From Escherichia coli (GTDB lineage: Bacteria > Pseudomonadota > Gammaproteobacteria > Enterobacterales > Enterobacteriaceae): DNA of 64,000 bases. Shown here piece by piece: positions 58,879 to 60,525 of the stretch; within the stretch, counting starts at the first letter, position 1, and every line of letters starts with the position of its first letter. The stretch is from the NCBI RefSeq assembly GCF_001677475.2, contig NZ_CP015229.1; one strand, written 5' to 3'. The notes beneath the pieces are model-generated. The model was not told the origin of the DNA. It saw only the letters and a list, made by a program, of their open reading frames with translations, and ran no database searches. The translations under genes and the position numbers were made by a program.

Positions 58879-60525
58879 ATGAATGGCGCACAGTGGGTGG
58901 TACATGCGTTGCGGGCACAGGGTGTGAATACCGTTTTCGGTTATCCAGGTGGCGCAATTATGCCGGTTTACGATGCATTGTATGACGGCGGCGTGGAGCA
59001 CTTGCTGTGCCGACATGAACAGGGCGCGGCAATGGCGGCTATCGGTTATGCCCGTGCTACTGGCAAAACTGGCGTATGTATCGCCACGTCTGGTCCGGGC
59101 GCAACCAACCTGATAACCGGGCTTGCGGACGCACTGTTAGATTCCATCCCTGTTGTTGCCATCACCGGCCAGGTCTCTGCGCCGTTTATCGGCACGGACG
59201 CATTTCAGGAAGTGGATGTCCTGGGATTGTCGCTAGCCTGTACCAAGCACAGCTTTCTGGTGCAGTCGCTGGAAGAGTTGCCGCGCATCATGGCTGAAGC
59301 ATTCGACGTTGCCAGCTCAGGTCGTCCTGGTCCGGTTCTGGTCGATATCCCAAAAGATATCCAATTAGCCAGCGGCGACCTGGAGCCGTGGTTCACCACC
59401 GTTGAAAACGAAGTGACTTTCCCACATGCCGAAGTCGAGCAAGCGCGCCAGATGCTGGCAAAAGCGCAAAAACCGATGCTGTACGTTGGCGGTGGCGTGG
59501 GTATGGCGCAGGCAGTTCCTGCTCTGCGTGAATTTATCGCTGCCACAAAAATGCCTGCCACCTGCACGTTGAAAGGGCTGGGCGCAGTAGAAGCAGATTA
59601 TCCGTACTATCTGGGCATGCTGGGAATGCACGGCACCAAAGCGGCGAACTTCGCAGTGCAGGAGTGCGATCTGCTGATCGCCGTAGGCGCACGTTTTGAT
59701 GACCGGGTGACTGGCAAACTGAACACCTTTGCACCACACGCCAGTGTTATCCATATGGATATCGATCCGGCAGAAATGAACAAGCTGCGTCAGGTACATG
59801 TGGCTTTACAGGGTGATTTAAATGCTCTGTTACCAGCATTACAGCAGCCGTTAAATATCAATGACTGGCAGCAACACTGCGCGCAGCTGCGTGATGAACA
59901 TGCCTGGCACTACGACCATCCCGGTGACGCTATCTACGCGCCGTTGTTGTTAAAACAACTGTCGGATCGTAAACCTGCGGATTGCGTCGTGACCACAGAT
60001 GTGGGGCAGCACCAGATGTGGGCTGCGCAGCACATCGCCCACACTCGCCCGGAAAATTTCATCACCTCTAGCGGCTTAGGCACCATGGGTTTTGGTTTAC
60101 CAGCGGCGGTTGGCGCACAAGTCGCGCGACCGAACGATACCGTCGTCTGTATCTCCGGTGACGGCTCTTTCATGATGAATGTGCAAGAGCTGGGCACCGT
60201 AAAACGCAAGCAGTTACCGTTGAAAATCGTCTTACTCGATAACCAACGGTTAGGGATGGTTCGACAATGGCAGCAACTGTTTTTTCAGGAACGATACAGC
60301 GAAACCACCCTTACTGATAACCCCGATTTCCTCATGTTAGCCAGCGCCTTCGGCATCCCTGGCCAACACATCACCCGTAAAGACCAGGTTGAAGCGGCAC
60401 TCGACACCATGCTGAACAGTGATGGGCCATACCTGCTTCATGTCTCAATCGACGAACTTGAGAACGTCTGGCCGCTGGTGCCGCCTGGCGCCAGTAATTC
60501 AGAAATGTTGGAGAAATTATCATGA
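58879..60525 (+). CDS. ilvG: acetolactate synthase II large subunit (intact, unlike the frameshifted K-12 allele)
   Basis: uninterrupted 548 aa [28 protein letters not shown]... Confidence 0.93.

Follow-up and report, generated by a model that had tools for sequence, protein, structure and literature searches.

An intact ilvG reading frame in a natural Escherichia coli genome outside the K-12 lineage

Is the reading frame of ilvG open at this locus, and what does an open frame tell about the strain that carries it? The frameshift that interrupts ilvG in Escherichia coli K-12 has been known since 1981. It leads to a premature UGA and abolishes acetohydroxyacid (acetolactate) synthase II (AHAS II), making K-12 valine-sensitive; once the frame is restored, K-12 grows with valine at 1 mg/ml, and polarity on the genes farther along the operon is presumed to be relieved as well (PMC8605374). 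For strains W, B and Crooks, an intact IlvG has also been reported (PMC3032704). For the 64,000-nucleotide stretch of DNA analysed here (the window), an initial annotation had described a continuous ORF of 548 residues encoding the AHAS II large subunit, with ilvM overlapping its stop, and had referred to the K-12 frameshift together with the valine sensitivity that it confers, a point on which the literature agrees (PMC8605374). From the intact gene, as well as from the non-K-12 genes that separate yieH from phoU, it had placed the strain outside K-12.

Both the ORF listing and the raw sequence display ilvG as a single frame on the forward strand, running over 548 codons from ATG to TGA with no internal stop, and its start coincides with the ilvG start annotated in RefSeq E. 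coli, as transferred by coordinates from aligned loci. By our own estimate, a stop-free run of this length has a chance of about 4e-12, from (61/64)^548. The translated protein was matched to the NCBIfam equivalog NF006524 (acetolactate synthase 2 catalytic subunit) with 1074.1 bits, the cutoff being 738 and residues 1-547 aligning to model positions 1-547 of 548, while the runner-up model, TIGR00118 for generic biosynthetic AHAS large subunits, was scored at 718.9 bits. A match of 1074 bits to NF006524 indicates that this is not a chance ORF. IlvG shows the three-domain architecture of ThDP enzymes, the Pfam domains TPP_enzyme_N (PF02776), TPP_enzyme_M (PF00205) and TPP_enzyme_C (PF02775) being recorded for an identical protein, and its translation contains 'CRHEQGA' around residue 47 and, within the C-terminal domain, 'SGDGSFMMN...VLLDNQ', which we take to correspond, respectively, to the catalytic glutamate and to the GDG...N motif for ThDP/Mg binding.

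IlvG also aligns over its full length with solved AHAS structures, the closest one being that of IlvB, the large subunit of AHAS I in E. coli (PDB 6LPI; E = 6.9e-162, residues 2-544). IlvB is thus a full-length homologue within the same ThDP-dependent fold family, but it belongs to a separate isozyme, in which it pairs with IlvN, and it scores below the AHAS II equivalog. AHAS I is inhibited by valine (PMC8605374). Judged from its sequence, the ORF is identified as ilvG, the gene for the full-length catalytic (large) subunit of AHAS II, and the frame and the NF006524 match together uphold the reading given in the initial annotation.

The surroundings of the gene concur with this assignment (Table 1). 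The operon is present in the order ilvL-ilvX-ilvG-ilvM-ilvE-ilvD-ilvA', with all members intact except that ilvA', collinear with MG1655 ilvA, is partial at the window end. ilvG is located within ilvLXGMEDA behind a leader rich in Val, Leu and Ile and an attenuator, and ilvM follows directly downstream. The attenuator hairpin, found between ilvL and ilvX and also picked out as a terminator-like site, folds as RNA with -21.6 kcal/mol (z = -4.1), and none of 200 shuffled sequences was equally stable. In a simple promoter scan of the region preceding ilvL, just two weak matches to the consensus were obtained, and these did not surpass the ones from shuffled sequences. The ATG of ilvM lies in 'tcATGAtg', where the last three bases of ATGA are the ilvG stop; the overlap announced by the initial annotation thus amounts to 4 nt. 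By this overlap of start and stop, ilvM, for whose product an ACT_5 domain is recorded, appears to be translationally coupled to ilvG and would provide the small subunit of AHAS II. ilvE has one terminal stop and differs from its MG1655 counterpart at 17 nucleotides and at no amino acid.

Table 1. Window positions of the ilv operon features, of the segments aligned with MG1655 and of the island between them.
Feature	Position	Strand	Description
tnaA to yieH block	3-7878		95.3% identity to MG1655
non-K-12 island	7879..15309		7.4 kb, about 30% GC; espY4-like, pentapeptide-repeat and type III effector-like genes
phoU-pstB block	15310-16910		97.9% identity to MG1655
pstA to ilvA block	16903-64000		98.45% identity to MG1655, 689 mismatches in 47 kb
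ilvL	58641..58739	+	32-aa leader peptide MTALLRVISLVVISLVVIIIPPCGAALGRGKA; NF007744, 79 bits against a cutoff of 59; position transferred from RefSeq
attenuator terminator hairpin	58760..58795	+	GC-rich stem at 58760-58787, then eight T at 58788-58795
ilvX	58826..58876	+	16-aa peptide, the same as the K-12 peptide; annotation transfer and translation
ilvG	58879..60525	+	intact, 548 aa; NF006524
AT dinucleotide	59855..59856	+	ilvG nt 977-978, codon 326; deleted in K-12, keeps the frame open
ilvM	60522..60785	+	87-aa AHAS II small (regulatory) subunit; NF008362, 133.9 bits against a cutoff of 68
ilvE	60805..61734	+	branched-chain amino-acid aminotransferase, intact, 309 aa; annotation transfer
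ilvD	61799..63649	+	dihydroxy-acid dehydratase of 616 aa, intact; differs from MG1655 at 47 nt and 1 aa
ilvA, 5' part	63652..64000	+	threonine deaminase; 116 open codons from ATG; cut by the window end

Two features of the operon deserve separate description. At codon 15 of ilvL (window 58683), Leu replaces Val, so that the leader reads ISLVVIII instead of the ISVVVIII of K-12 and WS0115A; one regulatory branched-chain codon is thereby exchanged for another, and the base is polymorphic, being different in a related assembly that encodes the same IlvG protein. Besides, no difference from MG1655 is seen in a tract of 528 bp at 60378-60906, which comprises the 3' end of ilvG, the whole of ilvM and the first part of ilvE; none of the 264 nucleotides of ilvM differs, in comparison with 1.8-2.9% in the flanking genes. 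Such an identity would point either to strong constraint or to recombination over a short tract.

The window gene was then compared by MAFFT with ilvG of the K-12 derivative AML001_par and with the allele of WS0115A, the closest among complete genomes. A single indel is observed, K-12 being devoid of the AT at alignment columns 977-978, and the K-12 translation consequently meets a stop (TGA) at codon 328. The same 2-bp gap is the sole indel within ilvG in the long alignment between the window and MG1655, and the window gene itself exhibits neither frameshift nor premature stop upon realignment. Two K-12 records label ilvG as frameshifted or as a pseudogene, in agreement with what had been stated initially about K-12. 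The K-12 pseudogene (b4488) and the window ilvG occupy orthologous loci with the same flanking genes, an identical ilvX and, at the nucleotide level, an identical ilvM. On the contrary, ilvG itself differs not only by the lost dinucleotide and the resulting stop but also, when the K-12 frame is restored, by 47 nucleotide substitutions leading to six amino acid changes (C146S, L220I, A306V, S342A, R344H and H494P). That 47 nucleotide differences translate into just six in the protein points to purifying selection on ilvG. Retention of the AT dinucleotide lost by the K-12 lineage is what holds the window frame open.

An open frame might nonetheless encode an AHAS II that is non-functional or unexpressed, through a missense or a regulatory defect, in which case the strain would still be valine-sensitive. 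The six amino acid differences from K-12, another six from the closest complete-genome allele, and the V15L replacement in the leader peptide could be taken in this sense. Nevertheless, the protein matches its equivalog over the full length and far above the cutoff, the ratio of nucleotide to amino acid changes indicates purifying selection, and the identical protein is present in dozens of independent assemblies. In addition, most of the replacements are conservative, and several of them are common to further alleles of E. coli: at four of the six sites that differ from K-12 (220, 306, 344 and 494), the window differs from WS0115A as well. As for expression, V15L retains a branched-chain regulatory codon, and the attenuator hairpin is intact. 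A defective AHAS II is, consequently, considered very unlikely, and the locus is almost certainly an ordinary ilvLXGMEDA operon in its wild-type form, from an E. coli outside K-12, in which an uninterrupted ilvG encodes the full-length AHAS II catalytic subunit.

The distribution of both junctions among 5,426 complete E. coli genomes helps to weigh what an open frame says about lineage. A 34-mer spanning the K-12 deletion junction, for which megablast seeding is possible only with the deletion present, was found in 340 of them, and 40 entries sampled evenly from these 340 all appear, judged by name or by a size of 4.46-4.83 Mb, to be K-12-type laboratory strains (MG1655, NEB 5-alpha, JM109, HB101, MC4100, J53, O16:H48 and others). 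The 36-mer of the intact junction is matched exactly in 3,495 genomes. Since an ilvL-ilvM query aligns over at least 80% of its length in 5,423 genomes, those in which the intact 36-mer is not exact, K-12 types aside, presumably carry nearby SNPs. The ilvG deletion is a good positive marker of K-12, and an intact ilvG is the norm of the species; being normal in E. coli, the intact gene makes "not K-12" a weak statement. With the ilvG of wild-type E. coli (W, B, Crooks, 042, O157:H7 and most natural isolates), the window gene shares its length of 548 residues, its start, the ATGA overlap with ilvM, the ilvLXGMEDA order and the NF006524 match, as well as 96-98% nucleotide identity over ilvL-ilvM, the best value among complete genomes being 98.1%. 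Its allele is a distinct one, separated by 38 nucleotides and six amino acids from that of WS0115A. It was absent from all 5,426 complete RefSeq E. coli genomes and was found in draft assemblies; the independent draft GCA_025810455.1 shows 100% identity to the window in the 7.6 kb surrounding ilvG, and the protein identical to the window IlvG is deposited under Escherichia coli accessions and indexed in about 58 assembly blocks.

K-12 cultures readily regain an open ilvG frame through secondary 1-bp deletions at the premature TGA (PMC8605374), hence an open frame alone does not strictly exclude K-12. In this respect, the conclusion of the initial annotation was correct, but the intact ilvG on which it leaned is neither a strict proof nor the strongest evidence available. 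The strain could, in principle, be a K-12 derivative with a repaired ilvG, either a spontaneous Val-resistant revertant of the kind that arises readily under selection or an engineered ilvG+ one. However, the window presents the ancestral AT and the wild-type 548 codons, with no compensating second-site deletion, and adds 47 further substitutions within ilvG; its sequence is read as the ancestral one and not as that of a secondary K-12 revertant.

Evidence from the whole window is more decisive. When it was compared by blastn with MG1655 3,888,000-3,958,000, three collinear blocks were obtained (Table 1), with differences spread throughout the window apart from the atp and rRNA operons. The attributes of the K-12 lineage are missing, namely the AT deletion, an identity to MG1655 well above 99.9% in collinear chromosome, and cbrB-cbrC-yieK-yieL-bglHBFG between yieH and phoU. 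Island 7879-15309, which has no counterpart in the MG1655 interval searched, replaces this last set of genes, held by MG1655 at the same position, and shows a GC content of 0.28-0.33, clearly below the value of about 0.52 in its flanks. Thus, a divergence of 1.5-4.7% from MG1655 and the island between yieH and phoU sustain both the placement of the strain outside K-12 and the non-K-12 gene content that had been noticed there. The ancestral AT, the 548 codons, the 47 further ilvG substitutions and an identity to MG1655 of just 95.3-98.45% together exclude K-12 ancestry; a repaired K-12 derivative, refuted by the window-wide divergence, was rejected and keeps a practically negligible probability.

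The island is homologous, with 84-95% identity, to one of E. coli UTME-7 annotated with espY4 and with genes for a pentapeptide-repeat protein and a type III effector. NCBIfam assigned neither of the two large effector-like ORFs to a family, and for one island fragment gave only weak pentapeptide-repeat (Qnr-like) matches, therefore the gene names used here rest on the RefSeq annotation of the UTME-7 island. In about 1,083 of the 5,426 genomes, 80% or more of the window's first 25 kb is covered in one place, which indicates that this arrangement is a common alternative. Relative to the best-matching E. coli copy, the espY4-like gene is shortened, its ORF having 704 aa instead of 802 aa and a deficit of 1 nt near 10246. 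The pentapeptide-repeat gene is broken into two ORFs, 10717-11340 and 11316-11900, and falls 4 nt short at 11323-11337; both genes are possibly pseudogenes.

Other features were recorded along the window. The segment tnaA-tnaB-mdtL-yidZ-yieE-yieF-adeP-yieH (3-7878) is clearly more diverged from MG1655 than the remaining window, and only about 95-99% identical to the E. coli sequences that cover it best. The intergenic region between pstB and pstA (16810-16901) is about 85-90 bp shorter than in MG1655. oriC, its position transferred from the MG1655 annotation, is situated at ~34095-34326 between mnmG and mioC, and the rrnC rRNA operon is found within 50-55.4 kb, together with tRNA-Glu (51754-51829), tRNA-Asp (55191-55267) and tRNA-Trp (55276-55351). 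In rbsB (44629-45489), an in-frame deletion of 30 bp relative to MG1655 occurs at window 45429, between two direct GAAAGGCG repeats, and removes VETADKVLKG near the C-terminus; the deleted stretch falls within the rbsZ sRNA region of K-12. As the resulting 286-aa variant is present on 16 contigs of public assemblies, it represents a real allele of the lineage and not an assembly error.

Within the species, the window has no close relative among the 5,426 complete RefSeq E. coli genomes, the best identities being 96.0% over 1-25 kb, 99.1% over 25-50 kb and 98.5% over 50-64 kb, while draft assemblies with identical sequence exist; the lineage is thus poorly sampled by finished genomes. These identities, together with the frameshifted appearance of some island genes, might be interpreted as pointing to Shigella or to a cryptic Escherichia clade, which would leave the comparison with K-12 beside the point. 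Against such an origin, which we regard as highly improbable, the database entries of the identical IlvG protein bear Escherichia coli names, no IS element interrupts the window, and 98.45% identity to K-12 over 47 kb falls in the usual range between E. coli phylogroups. Moreover, 465 E. coli genomes reach an identity of 99% or more in the 25-50 kb block and the gene order is that of E. coli, from which the window is placed inside E. coli diversity. A related reading, that of a deep and rarely sampled E. coli lineage whose private IlvG allele, with its six substitutions, and V15L leader could measurably change the kinetics of AHAS II or shift attenuation between Val and Leu, is given an equally slight probability; nothing in the data hints at such effects.

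The intact ilvG described here is, therefore, the normal wild-type state; it is already known biology and comes as no surprise. From established knowledge, the strain would be expected to make a valine-insensitive AHAS II and, hence, to grow in the presence of valine. Considering the pathway, excess valine should be unable to starve it of isoleucine, AHAS II not being inhibited by valine, and ilvEDA would be expressed without the reduction that frameshift polarity imposes in K-12. Enzyme activity, valine resistance and absence of polarity are all expectations drawn from what is established for this system. Beyond strain typing, for which a natural non-K-12 E. coli genome is confirmed, the finding has little consequence. 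The predicted valine resistance and non-polar expression of ilvEDA would be useful for growth in minimal media and for metabolic models, although they are textbook expectations.
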